Shown one piece after another: positions 51,313 to 63,643 of a DNA stretch of 64,000 bases; position 1 is the stretch's first letter; every line of letters begins with the position of its first letter. Location of the stretch: assembly GCA_963719515.1 (NCBI GenBank), contig CAVRCJ010000010.1:64001-128000 (forward strand), written 5' to 3'. The notes beneath the pieces are model-generated. The model was given only the letters and a program-made list of their open reading frames with translations, ran no database searches and had not been told where the DNA came from. The DNA comes from an uncultured cyanobacterium. Its GTDB lineage: Bacteria > Cyanobacteriota > Cyanobacteriia > CAKZMO01. Made by a program: the position numbers and the translations under genes.

Positions 51313-54300
51313 TCACTCCGCCCCATGAGGTTTCGCCAAGTTGCGGAAGCGGGTGTACTGCTGCTCAAACAGCAGCTTCACGGTGCCTACCGGGCCGTTG
51401 CGGTGTTTGGTGATAATTAGCTCGGCGATGCCGCGATCGGGGCTGTCAGGATTGTAGTACTCATCGCGGTATAGCATCAGGACTAAATCTGCATCCTGCT
51501 CGATAGATCCCGAGTTGTGAGAGACGATGCCGTCCGCCATCCAAGACGACGGCCCTGGAACCGTCAGGTCGTAGACGGTCTCTTGCCCAAGCGGCTCGAT
51601 CGAAACGACCTCATCCCAGAAAATGTCAGAGTTCACGACTTCTTCTAGGTCTGAGCTCTCTAGAATTTCGGCATAGCTAAGCACCGTTTCCCGAGTGGGT
51701 GCGAATTTGAAGTGGGATGAGCCGCCGTAAGACGTTCCTCTTGATGTGGCCATACGGCGATGAGAAATCCCTTGGACTTTCATCTCCTGCTTGACAATAT
51801 CAAAGACTTCAATGGGAAGCGTGTCTCTATTGGGATTTGGCTTGCCTCGGCGTAGAAGCTCAGCCCTGGCTGCTTCAGCAGGCTGTACTCGTGGTGGCAT
51901 ACGATTGGCTACGGCGAGGCGATCGCCCGCTTTAAGCTCCTGAACCTGTCGCCAGCCGTCAAACGTATAGAGGCGGTGCTTGCCGGTGGCTTTGATTTTT
52001 TTACCGCTTGCAGTAGTCAGAGCATAAACGGGCTTTTCGCCAACTTTCCAAATCAAATCGGCTTGAGCTTTCACGAGTCGCCCTTGTTCATTCATGCTGA
52101 CAACTTCAGGTGTTTGACCGACTAGCGCTGCAATAGGTAAACGTCTGCCGTCTGCCAGCCAAACCAACGTATCTTCCGTGACGCACTCCCTCAGGTCAGA
52201 CATCATCGGTCGCTTGTTCGTCCGCGACTCCACCCCTCGACTCAACTGCGACAGGGCAATAATCGGCACGCTCAGCTCCCGCGCCAGCGCCTTGAGCGAT
52301 CGCGTTACCTTAGAAAGCTCCTGCACCCGGTTATCGCTACCGGTGCCCTCCATCAGCTGCAGGTAATCGATCAGCACTAACCCTAAGGCTCCTCCCTGCT
52401 CCGCCTGCAGCCGCCGCGCTTTCGAGCGCATCTCGGTTACTGAAATACCTGCCGTATCATCAATAAAAATGGGGAGCTGAGACAGGGTATTGATGGCGTT
52501 ACCCAGCGGTCCCCACTCGTTTTGCCCCACTCGTCCGCCCCGCAGGCGACCGCTCTCAACTCGGGCCTCGCTGGAGAGCAGGCGGTAGACGAGCTGCTCT
52601 TTGGACATCTCTAGGCTGAAGACCGCTACCGGTAGCTTAGGCGTGGCTCCGGCGATGTTGCGGGCGATGTTGAGCACGAAGCTCGTGTTGTGGACACAGA
52701 TATCGTTGGCGACAAAGTTGTGGGTCTCTGGAATGGTTAAATCGTAAACTTGCTTGATGTCAACAGGCTCAATCGCGACAATTTTGTCCCAGTAAACGTC
52801 GCTGGTGGCAAGATGTTGGAGGTCTTGATTCTCTAAAGCAGTGGCCAGTGCGAAAAGGCGATCGCGGCTCAGCGCCCGCTTACCGACGTGAATATTGCTT
52901 GTTCCCTTTAGTCCGGCCTGGGTTGCGAGAGATTTCCAGGTCTGCTGGCCTTTGGCCTGCTGCAGCGTCTCCCAAATCTCGACGGGAATTAGGTCTCGAT
53001 TGGTTTGATAGCGCCGGTTACTCAGAGCCGCTTTAGCCTTCTCAAGGGCCTGCTCCTTGCCAAAAATCCCGATCTCGTCAATAAAAGTCTTAATCGAAAG
53101 CGCGTCTGTGATGTCGAGCTGGTAAGCAGGACGGCGATGGTCTTGGTACTTCACCGAACGGGTTTTGAGACGAGCAATGACCCCAAACCGCAGCAGCAGG
53201 TGCTGTACCTGTTGGGCCAATTTCTTACAAACCGTTGCAAACCCGAGCTGAACTTGACCACTCGCCAAAACGCTAGCCCAGCCATCGGTAGCAAAAAGGC
53301 GGTTTAAGAAGATTGCGAGCTGTGGCTTTGGTAGCTTAAATACGCAGGCTGGAACCCTCTTCTGATGGGCCGATTTTCCCCATAAGCCATGCTCCTGCAG
53401 CCACAGGGTTACGGAATTCTGACTGTCGGAGACCACAAAAAAGGACGGCGTTCTTGTGCCGCTAGAATCTTCCCGTCGGACCGTTACCCCAGGAAACTCT
53501 AAGGCTGAGTCCACAAACTCGCTTTGGATCGCTGGGTTCTCATTTGTGAATCCCGGTGATGTCCTCGTCAGTGAGCCGTCGCCGATGAAATAGCCCAGCA
53601 GCTTCACCTGGGATTCAGGCAACGTCTCGGTTCCAAAAATAGGTAGGCACCTCGGAACAGCAATTTTTTGCCCTGCCTGCAGGTCTTCTAAGGGTCGCCA
53701 TCCTTGAATAGTCAAAAACGGGTGAGACAGCGTGGTCTCGATAGTCCTTCCCGAGCTTGTCTCGACGCGAAAGACGCGCTTCAAGCCATCATCGACGTAA
53801 GCGCTTGGCTGGGTGAGCTTTAATCGCCAGTCGGTGTCTAAAGTCAGGAGAGAGGCGTTCTGCCCAACGTAAACTTCTTCAATCGTTTTAACGCTCCCGT
53901 CACCCACCACAATTTCAGCGTCAGCGCTGAGGCATTTACCCATGGAGGGACGCCCCGCCGCAATGATCAGATCTGATCGCTGGAATCCCTGGGTCATGGC
54001 GTCTAGGTCGTAAAAGCCAGAGGGAATCCCCGGCAGCACCAAACCCTCGGCCCGATTCTCAATGTCGGCAAAGGTGGAAATCAGAATTTCGGAGGTGGGA
54101 GAAAGCCCCTGGGTGGGCCGGTCTTGGGTGACGGCGAACAGCTGCTGCTCCGCCTGATCGACCACCGTCTCAAGGGTAGAGCGCGTGTCGTAGCCCATCT
54201 GGGCAATCTCATGGCCGGTTTGAATCAGCCGCCGCCGCAGGGCCTTATCGTTGACCAGCTGCGCGTACTGGTCGACGTTGACGGCGCTCACCGTGCGGTC

Positions 54301-54594
54301 CACCAGCTGAATGAGTCGCCCCTGTCCCCCTACCTTTTCTAGGGTGCCGTTGTCTCGAAGTGCGGTGGCAATGCGCATCAGATCCGTCGGCTGGCCTTGG
54401 GCAAACAGCGCTAGAGCCGCTCGGTAGATCTCTTGATGAGCGCCAATATAAAACGATTCGGGGCGCAGGGTATCGATAATGCGGCCCAGCGCCTCGGGGT
54501 CCAGCAAAATACCCCCCAGAATCGCCTCCTCCGCATCAATGTTTTGGGGAGGGAGGCGATCGCTGTAGGACTCAAAAACGGGCTCGCTGACCAT
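51313..54594 (-). CDS. dnaB: Replicative DNA helicase DnaB precursor with two inteins (mature protein ~453 aa)
   Basis: [55 protein letters not shown]. Confidence 0.97.
51514..52185 (-). mobile_element. Intein 2 (224 aa), endonuclease-free, at the SDLRE|SG site
   Basis: Starts CVTED and ends VSHN before S; block B TGKHRL; block F VYDLTVPG; no LAGLIDADG motif. Confidence 0.93.
52687..53934 (-). mobile_element. Intein 1 (416 aa) in the DnaB P-loop, with a LAGLIDADG homing endonuclease
   Basis: Starts CLSAD after GK and ends ICVHN before T; block [16 protein letters not shown] and [10 protein letters not shown]. Confidence 0.93.
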
Positions 54595-56225: not shown

Positions 56226-56594
56226 TTAGCCGGTGGGCGCGTCAAATGCCCGTAGCCGCATTAGGTAGGCGAGCATTTGCCCTTGCTCTGGGGTGATGTG
56301 GATGCCGCTGGGGCCAATTTCGATGGGGCCGGTCCACTGGGGGTGCTCGACGTAGCGGAGCATGTGCAGCCGGTATATGGTTTCGCGGATGGCTTCGGGG
56401 GAGCCGACGATGATGTGGCGGATGATTTCGCCGCTGGGGCCAGGGTAGGAAATGGGTTTGTCGGGGCAGGTTTGGTTAGCAGGTTTTGGCGATGGGAATA
56501 ACGGCTTTTGCAAAACCTGCCCGTACGCGGGGGTAGCTTCGGTCAGCGGGTTCTGTGCGGCCTCGTGAGGTCGCTGAGAATGTTGAAATGTCAT
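56226..56594 (-). CDS. Hypothetical protein with a hairpin-rich leader (start probably ATG 56594)
   Basis: RHIIVGSPEAIRETIYRLHMLRY...W core; RBS-like AGAGAG upstream. Confidence 0.7.
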   Translation of the reverse strand: MTFQHSQRPHEAAQNPLTEATPAYGQVLQKPLFPSPKPANQTCPDKPISYPGPSGEIIRHIIVGSPEAIRETIYRLHMLRYVEHPQWTGPIEIGPSGIHITPEQGQMLAYLMRLRAFDAPTG

Positions 56595-56760
56595 GGGTTT
56601 TCTCTCTTTGTTTGGTAAGAAAACCCAAAAATTGGCCATCCCTTTTCTTGGGCGTCTGGGATGGCTGCAGCCGCTGAAATACAATGGCTACAGCCCGGAG
56701 ACAGCTCACATCTGTCTAAGGGTCAGGGTGCGATCGGTGCTGCTAACACCGGTCGTACCC
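56595..56760. promoter_or_regulatory. Multi-hairpin leader or antisense RNA region
   Basis: Stems 56595-603/56618-626, 56634-642/56658-666, 56663-673/56685-695, 56726-739/56747-760. Confidence 0.6.
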
Positions 56761-56895: not shown

Positions 56896-57036
56896 GTAGG
56901 GTGGGCACCGCCCACAAAACGTTTACACATGTGGGATAGACCAACGCGCGGGACGGGATACACGGCATGGACAATGTGGGGTGGGTGATAATTCGGTGGG
57001 CAATAAACAATATGTAGTGGGCATTGCCCACCCTAC
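56896..57036. repeat. Inverted pair of GTAG-type REP elements (REPIN-like)
   Basis: GTAGGGTGGGCACCGCCCAC at 56896-56915; reverse copy GTAGGGTGGGCAATGCCCAC at 57017-57036; partial copy GGTGGGCAAT near 56995. Confidence 0.85.
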
Positions 57037-57554
57037 GGGCATCGACATGCCCAATCGATTCGATAATGTCCGTTATTGACCCATTTTTGAAAACTGGAAT
57101 AGGGCCATTGATGCGGGCAATTCGCCCACCCATGCTTCACCGGGTTGTAGTGAATATAATTGAGGCAGCGGGCCAATTCTTCTTCTGTGCGGATGGTACG
57201 TTCCCAAAAGCGACGCTGCCACACATCGCTTTCGCGGTGCTTTCGCCGGGACTCAGAAATGTCATCAGGCTGAACATTCTTGCCCCTCAGCGACTGAGTG
57301 AATAAGACTTTGATGCGTCCGACTCGTTTTGAGTAGTTGCTGTCGCTATCGGGCAATGTCCAGACGAAATGAATGTGATCGGGCAAAACGACGGCGGCGA
57401 CGATATCGAATGGGTCTTCGGCTTTGATTTGGCTGACGGCTTGGCGGAGGCGAGTTACGTTGTCGGCATGCTTGAAGAGCGGAGCGCGCTGATGGGTAAC
57501 CCAGGTGAGGAAGACGGTGCTACCAGGAATGTAGAGGCGGCGGTAGTTGGGCAT
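57033..57554 (-). CDS. REP-associated tyrosine transposase (RAYT/TnpA-REP)
   Basis: MPNYRR, HUH motif LPDHIH, WQRRFWE, catalytic NYIHYNPVKHG, WPYSSF; adjacent REPs. Confidence 0.93.
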   Translation of the reverse strand: MPNYRRLYIPGSTVFLTWVTHQRAPLFKHADNVTRLRQAVSQIKAEDPFDIVAAVVLPDHIHFVWTLPDSDSNYSKRVGRIKVLFTQSLRGKNVQPDDISESRRKHRESDVWQRRFWERTIRTEEELARCLNYIHYNPVKHGWANCPHQWPYSSFQKWVNNGHYRIDWACRCP

Positions 57555-57661
57555 GCAGGTTATGAGAAACGCTCGACCTGCTTAAGGTGCCCTGACGCAA
57601 GCTCGCCCGACTAACTTTCCTTTTGCTAGATTGTGGGTACAGGAAGATACCGGCAATATCG

Positions 57662-57997
57662 ATGTCTATGGACAACATCCAGCTTGAAATTGAGGGCCAG
57701 GGCGCGATCGCGGCGGCAGAGGACCTGCTGCAGACCGAGGGCATCCAGGGGCAGCTTGAGCCTATGGACGATGAGCCCGAGCGGGATTTAGCGATGGTTA
57801 CCGCGATCGCCACTATCGTCAGCCTGGCGCTGAACGCTATCGAGCTGGCGGAGAAGATTCACGGCTGGTACCGGGCCTATCGCCAGCGCAAGGATGCTGA
57901 CAAACGAATCGAGAAGGTCCTGCTGATTGGCAAGGACGGGCAGCGTATTCTGTTGGCAGATGCTTCGGTGGAGCAGATTCGCCGCATTCTCGAATAG
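57662..57997 (+). CDS. Small EACC1-like (effector-associated constant component) protein
   Basis: ~110 aa; central hydrophobic hairpin AMVTAIATIVSLALNAI followed by KIHGWY and a beta-rich tail (VLLIGKDGQRILL...VEQIRRILE); immediately upstream of a CHAT protease gene. Confidence 0.6.
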   Translation: MSMDNIQLEIEGQGAIAAAEDLLQTEGIQGQLEPMDDEPERDLAMVTAIATIVSLALNAIELAEKIHGWYRAYRQRKDADKRIEKVLLIGKDGQRILLADASVEQIRRILE

Positions 57998-58024
57998 CCC
58001 TGACCTCTATCGTGCTGCGCCGCC

Positions 58025-61000
58025 ATGGATATGGACATCCTTTACGTTGATCTGCTGCCTGCTGATGACGGCTATGTGACGCTGCGCTATGGAAAAGACC
58101 CTGATGATTGGGCCTCGGCGGACCGGCGACTGGCCCTTAGCGATATTCAAGCGCTGATTGACCACGACAAGCTTTTTTACTTCACCCGTCGCCCCGACTT
58201 TTGTAGTGTAGGTCAGCAGCTTTACGCCTGGCTGGATGGGGAGCAGCGCTGGCTGACGACAGAGATTGAGCGCTGCAGCGCTTCGGAGCTGGTGTTGATG
58301 ATTGCGGCGCGGGGGAAGCTGGCCCACCTGCCTTGGGAAGTGCTGCATGACGGAGACGAGTTTTTGACCCAGGCCATGACCCCTGTGGTGCCGGTGCGCT
58401 GGGTGGAGGGAGCGGCAAAGCCCCAGCCTCCCCAGGCGCGATCGCTCAGCGTGCTGTTCATGGCAACTTCGGTGGTGGGGGAGCAAGCCCTAGATTTTGA
58501 GCAGGAAGAGGCCAAAATTCTTGAAATCACCAACGATTTTCCGCTGAGCCTGCGGGTTGAAGAGAGCGGCTGCGTCACCGAGCTAGAGAAGCTATGGAAG
58601 CGCCACGACGAGGGTAGCTTTGATGTGTTTCACCTGACGGGGCACGCCGGGATTACCAAAGCGGAGCCGCCAACGCCATTCTTTATTACGGAAACTGAAA
58701 CGGGCGATCGCCGCGACGCCACCGCCAAAGATTTGTTTCGCGTTTTCAGGCGCAGACGCCCGCGGCTGGTGTTTCTTTCAGGCTGTCGCACCGGGCAGGC
58801 AGCCCAGGATGGCACAGTCAGCTCCATTGCCCAAGAGCTGGTGTCCTACGGTCTCCCGGCGGTGATGGGCTGGGGGCAGTCCGTGCGCGATCGCGACGCT
58901 ACCCTAGCGGCCCAAAAGCTGTATGAGTTTCTAGCGGCGGGCTATTCCCTGCCGGGGGCCTTTAGCGAAACCATCCAGCACCTGCAGGAAGAAGACGCCC
59001 GCGATTGGCACCTGCTGCGGCTGTACGCCCGCACCGATATGCTGGGGCCGCTGGTGCAAGCCGGTTCAACAGGGGTCTACCTGCCGCCCCTCGAAACGAC
59101 CCAAAGCTACTTTTTAGACGACGAGCAGCAGGTGCGCGTGGCTGGCCCGGACAAGTTTGTGGGGCGGCGACGGCTGCTGCAGCGCTGCCTAGGGCACCTG
59201 CGGGAGCGGGGCAAAGTTGGGGTGTTGCTGCATGGTCTGGGGGGCAACGGCAAGAGCACGGTGGCGGCGCGGCTGCTGGACCGGCTGCCGGGCTACACCC
59301 CCGCCGTGGTCTACCGGCGGTTAGACGAAGCCTCTCTGCTGCGATCGCTAGCGCGACAGGCCACAGACAAAGCGGGCCAGCCCATTCTAGATGCCGACGC
59401 CCCGCTAGAGCAGCGGCTCACCGACTTTTTGCGCTACCACCTGCAGCGGGGGCAGCGGTTTTGCCTGGTGCTGGATGACTTTGAGGCCAACCTGGAGCTG
59501 CTGCCCAACGGCCAGCCCGCCTTCAAGGCAAAGGCCGCCGCCAGCGCTAGCGCCGCCCTTTCCCCCCCAGAGGTGCTGACGGCTCTGATGCGATCGCTCC
59601 GGGCCACGGCAGAGCACCGCCTAATCATCACTAGCCGCTATGAGTTTACGCTGCCGGAGCTGGATTCCTACGTGGCGCGGGCATCGGTGCCGGCGCTGAG
59701 CGGCGCAGACTGGACTAAAAAGTGCGATCGCCTGGACGCCTTTAAGCCCCAGTCTGAGGTGGATCAAGACCTGCAGCAGCAGGCCAAAGACATCGCCAAC
59801 GGCAACCCCCGGCTGCTGGAATGGCTGGACGACGTGTTGCTGGCCCCTGACCTGGATAAGGCCGCGATTCTAGAAGCGATGGCGGCAAAGGAGGATGACT
59901 ACCGGGAAAGCATCTTAGCTGAAGCGCTGCTGGAGCAGCAGGTGCCAGCGGTAAGCCAGCTGCTGGCGCGGGGGCTAATCTATCAGCTTCCGGTGCCGGA
60001 GGCGGCGCTGGCGGCGGTGTGTGATGGGATGGAGAACTTCGCCCAGCATCGCGATCGCGCTGGGGCGCTGGGGCTGCTGGAGCTGAGCCAGATTCAGGGG
60101 GAGCCGCATTACCGGGTGTCGCGGCTGCTCGAAGAGCTGCTGCCCCAGGATGAGGCCACCGAAGCGCGGTGTGCTGCTGCTGCGGAAACGCTGTATGAGG
60201 TGTGGTGGACAGCGGCAAAGTCAGCTTCTGAGGAGCGATTACTGGAGATTCACCGGCTGGCGGTGGCCGGAAAACAGCCGGAAATTGTAGCTGCATTGGG
60301 GAGGGTTCTCACCGACCAGTGGAATACCCACAGCCGCTTTCGCGATATTGTTCGACTCTGTGAAACCAGTAAAACAATTGCGTCAGATGCCCGAGTGATC
60401 TATCCGCTAGCTCAAGCAGAGTTTGCTTTGGGTAATGTTGAGACTGCTCAGAGTCACTATCAAGGAGTTTTGGGACTTCCTAAAGCCGAGGGAGATGAAG
60501 AATATAGAGCCGCCACCCAGCATGAGATAGCGCGCATTTACGCTCAGCAGGGACAGGTACAACAGGCATTGGACTTCTACCACAAATCTCTTGAAGCTAA
60601 TGAAGCGATCGGGAATGTGAAAGGCGAAGCTGCCACCCGGCATGAGATAGCGGGCATCTGTGCTGAGCAGGGATATACGAAACGGGCCCTAGACCTCTAC
60701 AAAAGGTCTCTTAAGGACTTTGAAGTAAGTGGGGATGTGAAAGGCAGAGCTGACGCGATGGCAAATATGGCTACTATCTACGCCCAGCAAGGAGAGATGC
60801 AACAGGCCCTAGACCTCTACCAGCAGTCCTTTGAAAGCAATGAAGCAATTGGGAATGTACAAGGCAAAGCCGCCACGCTGCATCAGATGGCAGGCATCTA
60901 TGCCCAACAGGGAGAGGTGAAACAGGCCCTGGATCTCTACCAGCAGTCCTTTGAAAGCAATGAAGCAATTGGGAATGTACAAGGCAAAGCCGCCACGCTG

Positions 61001-61534
61001 AACAATATGGCTACTCTTACACTTGAGACAGGTGAGCGCGATCGCGCCTTGGAGTTACTAAAACAAACGGTGGAGGCAGTCTTCCAATCTGGAGACTATT
61101 TCAATGCAGTCGTAGTCCTCTCCAATGTCGCCGCCGCCTCTGAAGATGGCAAAATTGCCTACTTCGCCCAGGCCCTCTGGCTTGCCCTGCGAATAGAAAC
61201 GCCCTTGGACAGCCTGATGCGCCGCCTCTCCAATCTCTTCAACGCCCTCCCCAAAGGCGACCCCCTCGAACCCCTCCTCGCCGCCACCGCCCTCTACCAC
61301 TGTGCCCAACAGTCCAACCACCCCAATATCGAAGCCCTGCAAAAGCAGGCCCTCGGCATGCTCGGCTACGTCGCCAGCGCTCAAGGCATCGAAACCCAAG
61401 AAGCCCTACAACCCTGGATGGCCCAAAGCGGCCTCAACGACCCCAGCCAGTTTCTCCCCCGCCTCACCCAGGAACTAGAGGCCCGCATCGGTGGCACCTG
61501 GCTCTTCAACCCAGAGGAGCTGCGACGCCCATAG
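58025..61534 (+). CDS. CHAT (caspase/HetF-type) protease - STAND (NB-ARC-like) NTPase - TPR protein
   Basis: LPWEVL, FHLTGHAG (His), FLSGCRTG (Cys), FVGRR, Walker A GLGGNGKST, Walker B LVLDDFE, ITSR, GNPRLL, 40-aa TPR units. Confidence 0.9.
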   Translation: MDMDILYVDLLPADDGYVTLRYGKDPDDWASADRRLALSDIQALIDHDKLFYFTRRPDFCSVGQQLYAWLDGEQRWLTTEIERCSASELVLMIAARGKLAHLPWEVLHDGDEFLTQAMTPVVPVRWVEGAAKPQPPQARSLSVLFMATSVVGEQALDFEQEEAKILEITNDFPLSLRVEESGCVTELEKLWKRHDEGSFDVFHLTGHAGITKAEPPTPFFITETETGDRRDATAKDLFRVFRRRRPRLVFLSGCRTGQAAQDGTVSSIAQELVSYGLPAVMGWGQSVRDRDATLAAQKLYEFLAAGYSLPGAFSETIQHLQEEDARDWHLLRLYARTDMLGPLVQAGSTGVYLPPLETTQSYFLDDEQQVRVAGPDKFVGRRRLLQRCLGHLRERGKVGVLLHGLGGNGKSTVAARLLDRLPGYTPAVVYRRLDEASLLRSLARQATDKAGQPILDADAPLEQRLTDFLRYHLQRGQRFCLVLDDFEANLELLPNGQPAFKAKAAASASAALSPPEVLTALMRSLRATAEHRLIITSRYEFTLPELDSYVARASVPALSGADWTKKCDRLDAFKPQSEVDQDLQQQAKDIANGNPRLLEWLDDVLLAPDLDKAAILEAMAAKEDDYRESILAEALLEQQVPAVSQLLARGLIYQLPVPEAALAAVCDGMENFAQHRDRAGALGLLELSQIQGEPHYRVSRLLEELLPQDEATEARCAAAAETLYEVWWTAAKSASEERLLEIHRLAVAGKQPEIVAALGRVLTDQWNTHSRFRDIVRLCETSKTIASDARVIYPLAQAEFALGNVETAQSHYQGVLGLPKAEGDEEYRAATQHEIARIYAQQGQVQQALDFYHKSLEANEAIGNVKGEAATRHEIAGICAEQGYTKRALDLYKRSLKDFEVSGDVKGRADAMANMATIYAQQGEMQQALDLYQQSFESNEAIGNVQGKAATLHQMAGIYAQQGEVKQALDLYQQSFESNEAIGNVQGKAATLNNMATLTLETGERDRALELLKQTVEAVFQSGDYFNAVVVLSNVAAASEDGKIAYFAQALWLALRIETPLDSLMRRLSNLFNALPKGDPLEPLLAATALYHCAQQSNHPNIEALQKQALGMLGYVASAQGIETQEALQPWMAQSGLNDPSQFLPRLTQELEARIGGTWLFNPEELRRP
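60521..61000 (+). repeat. Four 120-nt TPR-coding tandem units
   Basis: Units start at 60521, 60641, 60761 and 60881; 60815-60880 is identical to 60935-61000 (66 nt). Confidence 0.9.
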
Positions 61535-61564: not shown

Positions 61565-62521
61565 CTAAATTCCCCACTGCTCCCGATGCCACCGCAACCC
61601 CTCCAAACTCGGCCAACTTCTCTCTTCCCTCGGCAACCCAATCGCCTCTCCCCGAAACGCCCCCATCTCCCGACTCCCCACCGCAGCCTCCTCCGTAAAC
61701 CGCTCCCCCGGCACCAAAATCCGATACCCATCATCTACCCCAAACCACCCCCGATCAAACGCCCAGTGATGGTTCTTACACAGCGCCATCCCGTTCACAA
61801 ACCGATCATCCCGAAACTCCGAAAACGGCTTGATATGCGCCCCATCCACAATATCCTGCCCCTCCACCCCAATAATCCTCAATCGGCAGAACGCGCAGCG
61901 CTGCTCATATAGCGACACCACAATTTTGCGGAACGCCCCATTGCGCACCACAACATTCTCCTCATCCTTCAAATCTTCGACGCTATAGGTCGCGCCCCCC
62001 TCTCGCAGCAGCCCCGCCTTCACCTGCTCAAATTCATCAATCAGCGAAAGCTGCTCTACATCCCGCGATCGCCCATCAAACCAGCTATCCACCAGCACCC
62101 GCAGCAATATCAATCGCTGCCCTGGGTCCTGCAAAATTGCAAACAGCTCCGGGTCCAGCCACGCATACTGCACCATATTTTGAACCGCCCTAACGCCGCG
62201 ACGCCCCAACGTCGTCGCCGTCGTCGCCTCACTATCCGGGTAAAACGACAGGTGCCAAAACTTATCCCCCGTCAAATGCACAAACGGCAGGGAAATATCC
62301 GAGCGGTGATTGCTGCTCACCAAGCTGCGCCAATACTTCAAAAACGTCGAAATTAGCTCCGGTGACAGCGGCACCCGGTTCGCCCGAATCTTGCCCTGCT
62401 CCATCATCTCAATCACCGACATCAGCAGCACAGGCTTGTGCGGCGCAGGCCCGCGCTCCTTGTGCCGGTTCACACTGAGCTTCGCAAACTTCTTGACGTA
62501 GTGTGGCAGGTCTTTCGTCAT
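61565..62521 (-). CDS. HNH endonuclease with an N-terminal sulfur-binding-domain-like region (phosphorothioate-dependent restriction type)
   Basis: APHKPVLL and LPFVHL...FWHL in the N-terminus; RNGAFR, CAFC, GAHIKP, NGMALCKNHHWAFDRG. Confidence 0.8.
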   Translation of the reverse strand: MTKDLPHYVKKFAKLSVNRHKERGPAPHKPVLLMSVIEMMEQGKIRANRVPLSPELISTFLKYWRSLVSSNHRSDISLPFVHLTGDKFWHLSFYPDSEATTATTLGRRGVRAVQNMVQYAWLDPELFAILQDPGQRLILLRVLVDSWFDGRSRDVEQLSLIDEFEQVKAGLLREGGATYSVEDLKDEENVVVRNGAFRKIVVSLYEQRCAFCRLRIIGVEGQDIVDGAHIKPFSEFRDDRFVNGMALCKNHHWAFDRGWFGVDDGYRILVPGERFTEEAAVGSREMGAFRGEAIGLPREERSWPSLEGLRWHREQWGI

Positions 62522-62742
62522 CCTGGAGCAGTTCTCAGGCCCAATTTGGCAGCGTCCTTCCCCCAAGTATGGAAAGCCCAAACGCGATCGCCCCCTACCG
62601 TAAAGAAACGTTACAGCTCGGCTTGACCACACCTTGCTGCGCTGACAGCATCCACTACGCGCAGCTTTGATGAATATTCAGGGATTGAACTATCCAGAAT
62701 CAGAGCTACGATTGCTAGCATCACCCCTCCAATGCTTTTGCT

Positions 62743-63090
62743 ATGGTCGCCTTGCCGTCACTAGAAACCAACATTCATTTAGCGAATAATCTGAAACAGG
62801 TTTCCGTCAATCCCGAGCAGCTAGACAAACTCTGCCGAGAACACCCGATTCGTAAGCTTTCGCTCTTTGGCTCCATCCTACGGGCCGACTTCACGGGCAG
62901 CAGCGATGTCGATTTTCTAGTTGAGTTCAACCCAGAGGCTAAGATTGGCTACTTCAAGCTAGTTCAAATGGAGCAAGAACTCACTGAACTTGTTGGCCGT
63001 AAGGCTGATCTCCGTACACCCGGCGAATTGAGCCACTACTTCCGCCAAAACGTCCTCAACGAGGCGATCGCTCTGTATGTCAAAGATTGA
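62743..63090 (+). CDS. MNT (minimal nucleotidyltransferase) antitoxin
   Basis: SLFGS-x10-DVD motif, L.ELVGRKADL. Confidence 0.9.
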   Translation: MVALPSLETNIHLANNLKQVSVNPEQLDKLCREHPIRKLSLFGSILRADFTGSSDVDFLVEFNPEAKIGYFKLVQMEQELTELVGRKADLRTPGELSHYFRQNVLNEAIALYVKD

Positions 63091-63417
63091 CGACCAAACC
63101 CGGCTTCGCCATATGCTGGATGCGGCTCAAAAAGTAAGCCAGTACATTCAACCCGAGACTCGGCATCCCTTGAAAAGGACGAAAAACTTGCCTTAGCGCT
63201 CGTCCGCCTGCTTGAGATCATCGGCGAGGCAGCGGCAAATGTGAGTCAAAAGAAGAAGGCTGCGCTTCCTCAAATTCCCTGGAAGCTGCTAACTGGAATG
63301 CGAAATCGAATCGTTCACGCATACTTTGATGTTGACTATGACATTGTCTGGGATACCGCGACTGACGATATTCCCGTGCTTGTCTCCCAATTGAAAAGCG
63401 CCCTTGCCAAAAGCTAA
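63077..63417 (+). pseudogene. HEPN (DUF86) toxin with a 1-nt deletion near 63162 (or a sequencing error)
   Basis: MSKIDDQTRLRHMLDAA...; restoring one G gives ASLEKDEKLALALVRLLEIIGEAA...IPW...GMRNRIVHAYFDVDYDIVW (Rx4H motif); not in the ORF track. Confidence 0.85.
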
Positions 63418-63643
63418 TCATCTACTTCGACCACCAAGCCGCAACTTTTGCTCTGAGAGTTGTCAAAAAATCCTCTACGCCACGACTATAGGCTTCGGTA
63501 ACGCTTGCAGCTTCGGCACGACCGCCTACGATCTTTCGGTGAACTACACAGCCAGCCGCCCCCACCGCCGAATCTCTCAGCGGCAGAGGCAAAACTGTAC
63601 GGGCAAGTGGCTGCCCCGATGAGAACTGACAGACGCCGCTACC

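Follow-up and report, generated by a model that had tools for sequence, protein, structure and literature searches.

The window analysed here, a stretch of 64,000 nucleotides (nt) from an uncultured cyanobacterium (GenBank contig CAVRCJ010000010.1, positions 64,001 to 128,000), was found to carry two adjacent genes, one for a small protein with a single hydrophobic segment and one for a large CHAT-STAND-TPR protein, that are likely to form a regulated-death module of the EACC1-caspase kind. In such a module, binding of a ligand would cause the STAND domain to oligomerise, the CHAT protease would cut the small protein, and a membrane pore would follow. The anatomy of the gene pair, its linkage across genomes, the selection acting on it, the conservation of a loop in the small protein and the variation of the repeats in the large one were obtained in this work, and cleavage, toxicity and leakage are taken by analogy from Evans et al. 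2025 (10.1101/2025.11.14.688446).

The cut-and-release model is not new, because the EACC1-caspase gene pair, STAND fusions included, was defined by Kaur 2020 (PMC7159879) and because cleavage, a toxic C-terminal fragment and liposome leakage were demonstrated for the Ktedonobacter EACC1 and its STAND-caspase KrAvs12 (Evans 2025). As this core logic is known, it will not surprise a specialist; what differs from the known pair is the protease class, the likely P1 residue, the host range and the sensor.

The gene pair and its linkage

The two open reading frames lie where the original prediction had placed them, separated by 27 nt. The small frame starts with the ATG at 57662 (111 aa) or at 57668 (109 aa, the start of the closest relatives) and its stop ends at 57997; the large frame (58025-61534) encodes 1169 aa with a CHAT-STAND-TPR architecture. 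The catalytic dyad, the Walker motifs and the TPRs attributed to the large protein were all recovered, with His207 in HLTGH, Cys254 in LSGC, both Walker motifs at the residues given in Table 1 and a TPR_12 match of 97 bits. Pfam CHAT (PF12770) matched residues 62-326 with 71 bits (cut-off 24) and AAA_16 matched residues 377-509 with 37.7 bits (cut-off 32.6); an NB-ARC match at E 0.002 was below its cut-off. The P-loop with its Walker A and B motifs is placed between an N-terminal effector and C-terminal repeats, which is the layout of STAND proteins.

His207 and Cys254 are invariant in all 54 aligned CHAT domains. Residues 1-346 gave an AlphaFold2 model with a mean confidence (predicted local distance difference test, pLDDT) of 90.5, for which the first Foldseek matches were Csx29/TPR-CHAT, SAVED-CHAT and separase (E 3e-11 to 1e-8), with true caspases following from E 1e-4 onwards. 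By profile and model, the protease is a separase-like CHAT with a His-Cys dyad and the caspase-haemoglobinase fold. A search of PDB sequences with the CHAT profile returned a single match (E 0.21), which was discarded as chance.

The genome contains 22 CHAT matches, yet both of its small-family genes directly precede this CHAT subtype, so that the pairing exceeds chance. The second copy of the module (G000:C3:789017-792328, minus strand; loci L006/L134) encodes a small protein 43% identical to that of the window, and its large gene has a frameshift in the TPR region near C3:789,500, leaving 837 aa and a 168-aa tail. In other genomes the predicted linkage was borne out. In the first genome set a CHAT gene lies downstream of the small gene in 32 of 35 loci, the other three being a truncated copy (L005), a contig end (L032) and a copy whose hydrophobic segment has suffered a deletion and which is followed by a transposase-like gene instead of CHAT (L023). 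A GTDB search gave 285 matching stretches, and in the 79 loci obtained from the best 80 of them, a Nostoc-heavy selection overlapping the 35-locus set, a CHAT gene was found at most 1.5 kb downstream in 76. The CHAT partners at these loci are complete at 45 (at least 900 aa) and run off the contig at 12. The gap between the two genes exceeds 400 nt in 15 of the 76 pairs, and genes of toxin-antitoxin (TA) or HNH type are found inside it at L057, L062, L072, L089, L092, L096 and L108.

Starting from the protease, a CHAT profile applied to 401 genomes at E ≤ 1e-60, with five candidates scored per genome, gave 48 places, comprising 38 of this subtype, nine of a sister group and one second half of a broken gene. 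The small gene stands upstream at 36 of the 38 places, the remaining two being at contig starts, a figure that is partly circular since paired genes had gone into the CHAT profile and the genomes are also related. A GC-rich metagenome locus (L192) encodes a small protein 42% identical to the relative P0146, with the same CHAT N-terminus downstream of it.

Both genes are under purifying selection. Relative to locus L002, the ratio of non-synonymous to synonymous substitution rates (dN/dS) is 0.10 for the small gene and 0.17 for the large one at a dS of about 0.6. Tree distances of the two proteins are correlated (Spearman 0.62, n=36), which shared descent alone can explain. Nearly all relatives found are cyanobacterial. 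The small family was detected in 37 of the 401 cyanobacterial genomes, including 24 of the 45 from one family and 0 of 225 across twelve families. Its distribution is patchy with many unrelated insertion sites, and the module occurs on four Nostoc plasmids; together with TA and BREX genes among the neighbours, this is the pattern of a mobile element and speaks for the proposed module.

Predicted cleavage and release of the small protein

The small protein is a divergent branch of EACC1, though the window copy misses the Pfam cut-off; the EACC1-like label of the original prediction holds up, the family being homologous to EACC1 by profile searches, though the window protein taken by itself does not hit the EACC1 profile. 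A profile search of 1.84 billion representatives found 245 proteins at E ≤ 0.001, and from the 150 of them that were listed, 88 near-full-length relatives were aligned. EACC1 was the top Pfam family among the distant relatives (19/88 at E ≤ 0.1), far above any other family, and P0146 exceeded the cut-off (24.9 bits against 23.6) in a match that spans positions 14-106 of 107. When the family profile was used for a second search, 115 proteins were obtained, six of which, found at E 5e-24 to 2e-19, carry PF19953 and scored 24.5-32 bits against the same cut-off when rescanned, bringing the small-family relatives above it to seven. In an Atlas search the rank 5 cluster was 10% EACC1. By eye, the published KrEACC1 sequence is co-linear with the window protein, and the modelled fold agrees with the EACC1 layout of Evans et al., in which an N-terminal piece shares a sheet with two C-terminal strands. 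No similarity to gasdermin or Pepco (Trypco1/2) was present in the Pfam lists or among the fold hits, and EACC1 fits the small protein better than either. A match to the YonT toxin (E 0.04, 14 bits against 45) was rejected. In one relative, P0093, the small domain forms the C-terminal end of a different kind of protein, 368 aa long.

The AlphaFold2 model of the small protein (mean pLDDT 85.5) has the order beta-alpha-beta, disordered loop, beta-alpha-beta-beta-alpha. The hydrophobic hairpin expected after the linker was not borne out: a single hydrophobic segment is followed by an amphipathic helix, with no two-helix transmembrane hairpin. The best 19-residue Kyte-Doolittle mean is 1.84, starting at residue 42, and means of at least 1.6 were obtained for 77 of the 88 relatives. 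In the uncut model this segment is packed as a strand and a helix in a compact soluble fold. Foldseek gave no match to the model at E ≤ 0.001 and no solved homologue. The best VIA match was to ribosomal S10-like chains (Z 7.5, root-mean-square deviation 2.5, 81 residues aligned) and reflects only the common ferredoxin-like arrangement. The ferredoxin-like fold is also used by protease propeptides.

Kaur 2020 (PMC7159879) proposed another role for the small protein, which would sit in the membrane as a sensor or anchor and activate the protease; the protease would then process itself and free the STAND-TPR part. A single hydrophobic segment and constant pairing agree with that proposal as stated there, but the hydrophobic segment is buried in the compact soluble model, a basic residue conserved within a disordered loop points to a substrate, and Evans et al. 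found EACC1 to be both substrate and effector; a sensor or anchor is therefore considered highly improbable.

The charged linker reported before the hydrophobic segment is indeed present and coincides with the low-confidence loop of the AlphaFold2 model (mean pLDDT 60 for block 31-40, below 50 for residues 38-40). In a set reduced to 108 sequences at <60% identity, Arg or Lys occupies position 39 in 104 (109/112 before the reduction), although the rest of the loop varies; Asp or Glu stands at position 40 in 81 and Glu at position 36 in 53, the window protein reading E36-P-E-R39. Separases cut (D/E)xxR sites by means of acidic S1 residues (PMC4626109), and HetF, a cyanobacterial CHAT protease, cuts PatU3 after Arg117 (PMC9457339). 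Because Arg/Lys at position 39 is kept in 104/108, a cut after Arg39 is predicted with fair confidence, and a cut after Asp40 is regarded as possible but doubtful. The protease keeps invariant E161/E162, a hint of an S1 determinant; it is kept as a hint because KrAvs12 has a metacaspase-like motif and yet its cut was modelled at Asp. The residue concerned, Asp49 of KrEACC1 (10.1101/2025.11.14.688446), corresponds by eye to Arg39 if the Gly-Thr motif is aligned and lies nearer Asp40 if the conserved Trp is aligned. No cleavage site was found in the available part of the SAVED-CHAT preprint.

A cut at position 39 would give an acidic 4.3-kDa N-terminal piece (charge -10.5) and a 7.9-kDa C-terminal piece (pI 9.2) with the hydrophobic segment at its start; among the relatives with a locatable site (80/88), 95% have an N-terminal piece of net negative charge. 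In the proposed course of events, the TPR array would bind a ligand that is foreign or signals stress, a phage protein being the likeliest by the precedent of Avs and nucleotide-binding leucine-rich-repeat-like receptors (NLRs), and the STAND domain, whose motifs are intact, would oligomerise and switch on the N-terminal CHAT protease. As the pattern of conservation suggests, the protease would then cut the small protein at the exposed loop, and the acidic N-terminal piece, which would cap the fold, would be lost. By analogy with the Ktedonobacter EACC1, the C-terminal piece may expose its hydrophobic segment, oligomerise and permeabilise the membrane, and death of the cell may spare neighbouring cells.

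Several observations count against this mechanism or its extension to the window copy. A sister CHAT-STAND clade (L148-L156; nine places, 741-1796 aa) has no small gene nearby, keeps the dyad in eight of nine with an insertion of 16-20 residues after the catalytic His, and a small-family member is absent from three of the five sister-clade genomes searched. As the dyad is kept there without the small gene, the protease type can persist without this effector. Three of the 79 GTDB small genes have no CHAT downstream, and 19 of the 79 CHAT partners are short or broken. PF19953 did not match the window protein at E ≤ 0.1 or E ≤ 1 and touched only two of 30 close relatives, weakly. PADLOC reported only a generic TPR hit in the window, PADLOC 2023 predating most Avs families. 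The commonest and largest clusters of neighbours are housekeeping genes, and the family scan covered 37 hand-picked clusters of 153 without an enrichment control for defence islands. Last, a glycine patch, described as typical by Kaur 2020, is absent from the window copy, which reads S52/L55/N56 with Ala, Ser or Thr and no Gly in the patch; all three glycines are absent in only 8 of 108 sequences, the window copy included. Within the sister clade, L156 no longer has the dyad, and its helical N-terminus is a different one. The clade is a possible effector-free caspase system.

The sister clade leaves room for a host substrate or an inhibitor role, in which the small protein would be a prodomain-like cap or decoy substrate that quiets the protease and the lethal target would be a host protein. 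The active-site residues kept without the small gene, the ferredoxin-like model with its likeness to propeptides and the effector-free caspase described by Evans et al. as defending alone would suit such a role. Against it, inhibition would not need the conserved hydrophobic segment (77/88), and deletion of EACC1 abolished toxicity in the EACC1 system tested by Evans 2025, so that an inhibitor or decoy is held to be very unlikely.

The glycine patch bears on whether the family works as described while the window protein has lost its pore activity, having no patch glycines and a Leu after the ERD motif. Relatives have G at positions 52, 55 and 56 in 68, 52 and 75 of 108 sequences, where the window protein has none. 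However, L002 shares the glycine-free segment under purifying selection (dN/dS as above), there are seven other glycine-free relatives, and the large gene is intact. Loss of pore activity is accordingly given very little credence, and release of a membrane-active fragment is retained as the likely function of the window pair.

The repeat array and its putative ligand

The region C-terminal to the peptidase varies in this family: the STAND domain is constant, the caps differ, and the number of 40-aa TPR units ranges from 0 to 13 among 46 full-length proteins. A GUN4-type C-terminal end is present in 3 of 45 full-length relatives; at L065, L113, L117 and L160 a GUN4-like domain takes the place of the TPR array at the C-terminus. 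In the window, a 120-nt tandem repeat (60508-61000, 4.1 copies, 73% matches) covers four of the five units, and units at least 80% identical in DNA occur in 25 of the 46 proteins.

A first count of repeat differences (371 pairs) was judged non-independent and replaced by a reduced test with one gene per cluster, in which 6 of 13 clusters had such pairs, giving 36 spanning-tree pairs. Overall, the proportion of non-synonymous differences (pN, 0.055) was below that of synonymous ones (pS, 0.100), and an excess was found at repeat position 9 (pN/pS 2.8, p 2e-6) and position 31 (pN/pS 2.4, p 1e-4), position 6 being marginal (p 0.049, uncorrected). Mean pN/pS was 1.47 for positions 2, 5, 6, 9, 12 and 13, presumably the TPR binding groove, and 0.26 for structural positions. 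The 36 pairs stem from six genes, three of which supply 30 of them, and the window supplies one, so that repeat diversification is treated as a lead at the level of the family.

Judging from these sequences, near-identical 120-nt units that are gained, lost and mutated probably adjust the specificity of the sensor. Such near-identical repeats, the number of which varies, point to a ligand that varies too and not to a single phage fold. Conserved repeats in bacterial NLRs were reported by Dyrka et al. 2020 (10.1101/2020.01.06.895854), who suggested fungal-style diversification without demonstrating it; at the level of the present family, the unit counts and the reduced test show such a pattern. 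A wider proposal can be put forward tentatively, namely that the module belongs to a cyanobacterial NLR lineage with a re-programmable TPR sensor, each strain or allele recognising a different non-self protein (of a phage, a parasite or a neighbour strain) with the fixed output of an Arg-specific separase-like protease that arms an EACC1 pore. If so, substitutions at repeat positions 9 and 31 would alter the trigger of cell death.

The same chemistry could also answer to a trigger other than phage, such as non-self or stress in a filament or colony (kin discrimination, parasite attack or programmed filament breakage). The near-identical repeats with a site-specific excess of amino-acid changes match the fungal allorecognition pattern (Dyrka 2020), no Avs-specific PADLOC match was obtained, HetF is a cyanobacterial CHAT with a developmental role, and EACC1 modules fused to DnaK-like sensors are noted by Evans et al. 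On the other hand, the patchy spread, the plasmids, the frequent breakage and the TA genes in the operon gap fit conflict better than development, and the bacterial STAND-TPR sensors that have been tested recognise phage proteins (PMC13581612). A non-phage trigger is thus judged unlikely, and a phage protein is retained as the most likely ligand. A search of the supplement of PMC13581612 for a named Avs family assignment gave no hits.

The module extends EACC1 systems to a cyanobacterial branch that Pfam misses, the EACC1 cut-off being passed by 0 of 301 sampled genomes. Cyanobacteria have many orphan CHAT proteins, and for one clade of them a specific candidate is now available for the substrate and for its cut site. 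The loci would form a natural allelic series, in which the killing output is constant and the TPR input diversifies; this series could serve as a direct test of fungal-style diversification in bacterial NLR repeats and bears on what filamentous and bloom-forming cyanobacteria sense when killing the cell.

Features, neighbours and relation to known systems

Table 1 Coordinates in the window of the gene pair and its parts. Residues are numbered separately for each protein.
Feature	Position	Strand	Basis
Small gene, divergent EACC1-family protein, predicted latent effector	57662..57997	+	Open reading frame, AlphaFold2 model, PF19953 family link
Exposed loop D34-L41; predicted P1 Arg39 (57782-57784), alternative Asp40 (57785-57787)	57767..57790	+	Low pLDDT and residue conservation; cut predicted
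Hydrophobic segment, residues 42-60, predicted membrane-inserting part	57791..57847	+	Hydropathy; alignment of relatives
CHAT (caspase/separase-fold) protease region, residues 1-345	58025..59059	+	Pfam CHAT, structure model, Foldseek
Catalytic His207	58643..58645	+	Invariant, 54/54
Catalytic Cys254	58784..58786	+	45/45 full-length relatives; 54/54 CHAT domains
STAND-type P-loop NTPase and following helical region, about residues 346-740, end approximate	59060..60244	+	AAA_16, conservation profile
Walker A, residues 404-412	59234-59260	+	Motif
Walker B, residues 481-487	59465-59485	+	Motif
Five 40-aa TPR-like units, residues 829-1028, predicted sensor	60509..61108	+	Pfam, repeat analysis
C-terminal cap, unlike that of most relatives	61109..61534	+	Alignment by eye

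By eye, a similar C-terminal cap ends the proteins of L102, L103 and L105, and an Atlas search with the window cap gave weak TPR-like leads only. A promoter and terminator scan of 57400-58100 found none, with 0.4 and 0.3 expected.

Upstream of the small gene and diverging from it is a REP-associated tyrosine transposase (RAYT) gene (57033-57554, minus strand; NF047646 above cut-off), and similar genes adjoin L023, L155 and L156 (by eye). An HNH nuclease gene (61565-62632, minus strand), resembling phosphorothioate-DNA-binding restriction enzymes (NF045808, 97 bits against 180), converges on the module, and beyond it an MNT-type nucleotidyltransferase gene (62743-63420, plus strand) is followed by an apparently frameshifted HEPN/DUF86 partner (by eye). 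These RAYT, HNH and MNT genes were rejected as partners, being unconserved across loci. Also set aside was a 152-aa gene (56226-56684, minus strand) that is found near other EACC1-type modules too, but has about 49 copies in the genome (39-70% identical) and is absent from the other fetched loci; it has no Pfam, NCBIfam or PADLOC match. Further upstream, a DnaB helicase of 1093 aa (51313-54594, minus strand) apparently contains two inteins (by eye). No third conserved gene emerged from 292 neighbours of the module, which formed the 153 clusters mentioned above; the families scanned include RelB/ParE, PIN, HNH, DUF433/DUF5615, Uma2, BrxB/BrxC, methylase and relaxase.

A second cyanobacterial EACC1-like family (L036, L037, L162-L191) pairs with C14-type caspases, the protease lying downstream in most loci. 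It occurs in 40 of 301 genomes, with none above the Pfam cut-off, at places distinct from those of the window family, to which it is about 10% identical; a loop Lys is present in 26 of 30 members. Alignment of the two family profiles with hhalign gave E 2e-4 to 8e-4 at a probability of 19-25%, against E 0.06 for the reversed control. Its members in this genome are G000:C6:107219-107614 (minus strand), from which a C14-type caspase gene on the opposite strand diverges at a distance of 325 nt, and G000:C3:653990-656495 (plus strand), which precedes a C14-type caspase gene. At L158 (G196:C6) a truncated small gene of the window family is followed by a C14-type caspase instead of CHAT. Compared with the window family, the second family has a co-linear profile, the loop Lys and the protease downstream in common and differs in its C14-type protease class.

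A literature search found no paper on this cyanobacterial EACC1-CHAT branch; subscription journals were thinly covered, and published EACC1 lists may include the branch. The module is best filed as a divergent branch of EACC1-caspase systems. EACC1-KrAvs12 of Ktedonobacter racemifer resembles it in having a small EACC1 gene directly before a caspase-fold protease-STAND NTPase, an EACC1 of 114 aa (109 aa here) and a loop before the hydrophobic segment. In KrAvs12 the caspase is short and C14-like (Cys152) and the cut was modelled at Asp49; the window system instead has a 345-aa separase-like CHAT (Cys254), Arg/Lys as the best-conserved loop residue and a tandem TPR sensor of variable length, and is cyanobacterial. 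System 4 of Kaur 2020 (PMC7159879) likewise pairs a small 5' gene, whose product has a single hydrophobic segment flanked by alpha+beta elements, with a 3' gene for a protein that starts with a caspase-superfamily peptidase; STAND and repeats are among its C-terminal fusions. That system was described as actinobacterial, sporadically proteobacterial, with up to 50 C-terminal domains, whereas the window branch is mainly cyanobacterial with a constant CHAT-STAND and varying repeats.

Among other relatives, Avs/STAND receptors (PMC13581612) have the same effector-STAND-TPR layout, and their tested members bind phage proteins. HetF, Csx29, SAVED-CHAT and the bacterial gasdermin-associated CHATs have the fold and dyad of the window CHAT; they differ in their substrates and in their activators (membrane/TPR, CRISPR RNA, cyclic oligonucleotide). 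With gasdermins, the proposed module would have in common the logic of proteolytic release of a pore-former. Fungal NLRs with high internal repeat conservation (as summarised in Dyrka 2020) also have units 80-90% identical within a gene and diversifying positions, but signal through amyloid motifs and HeLo/Bell domains, not through EACC1 proteolysis.

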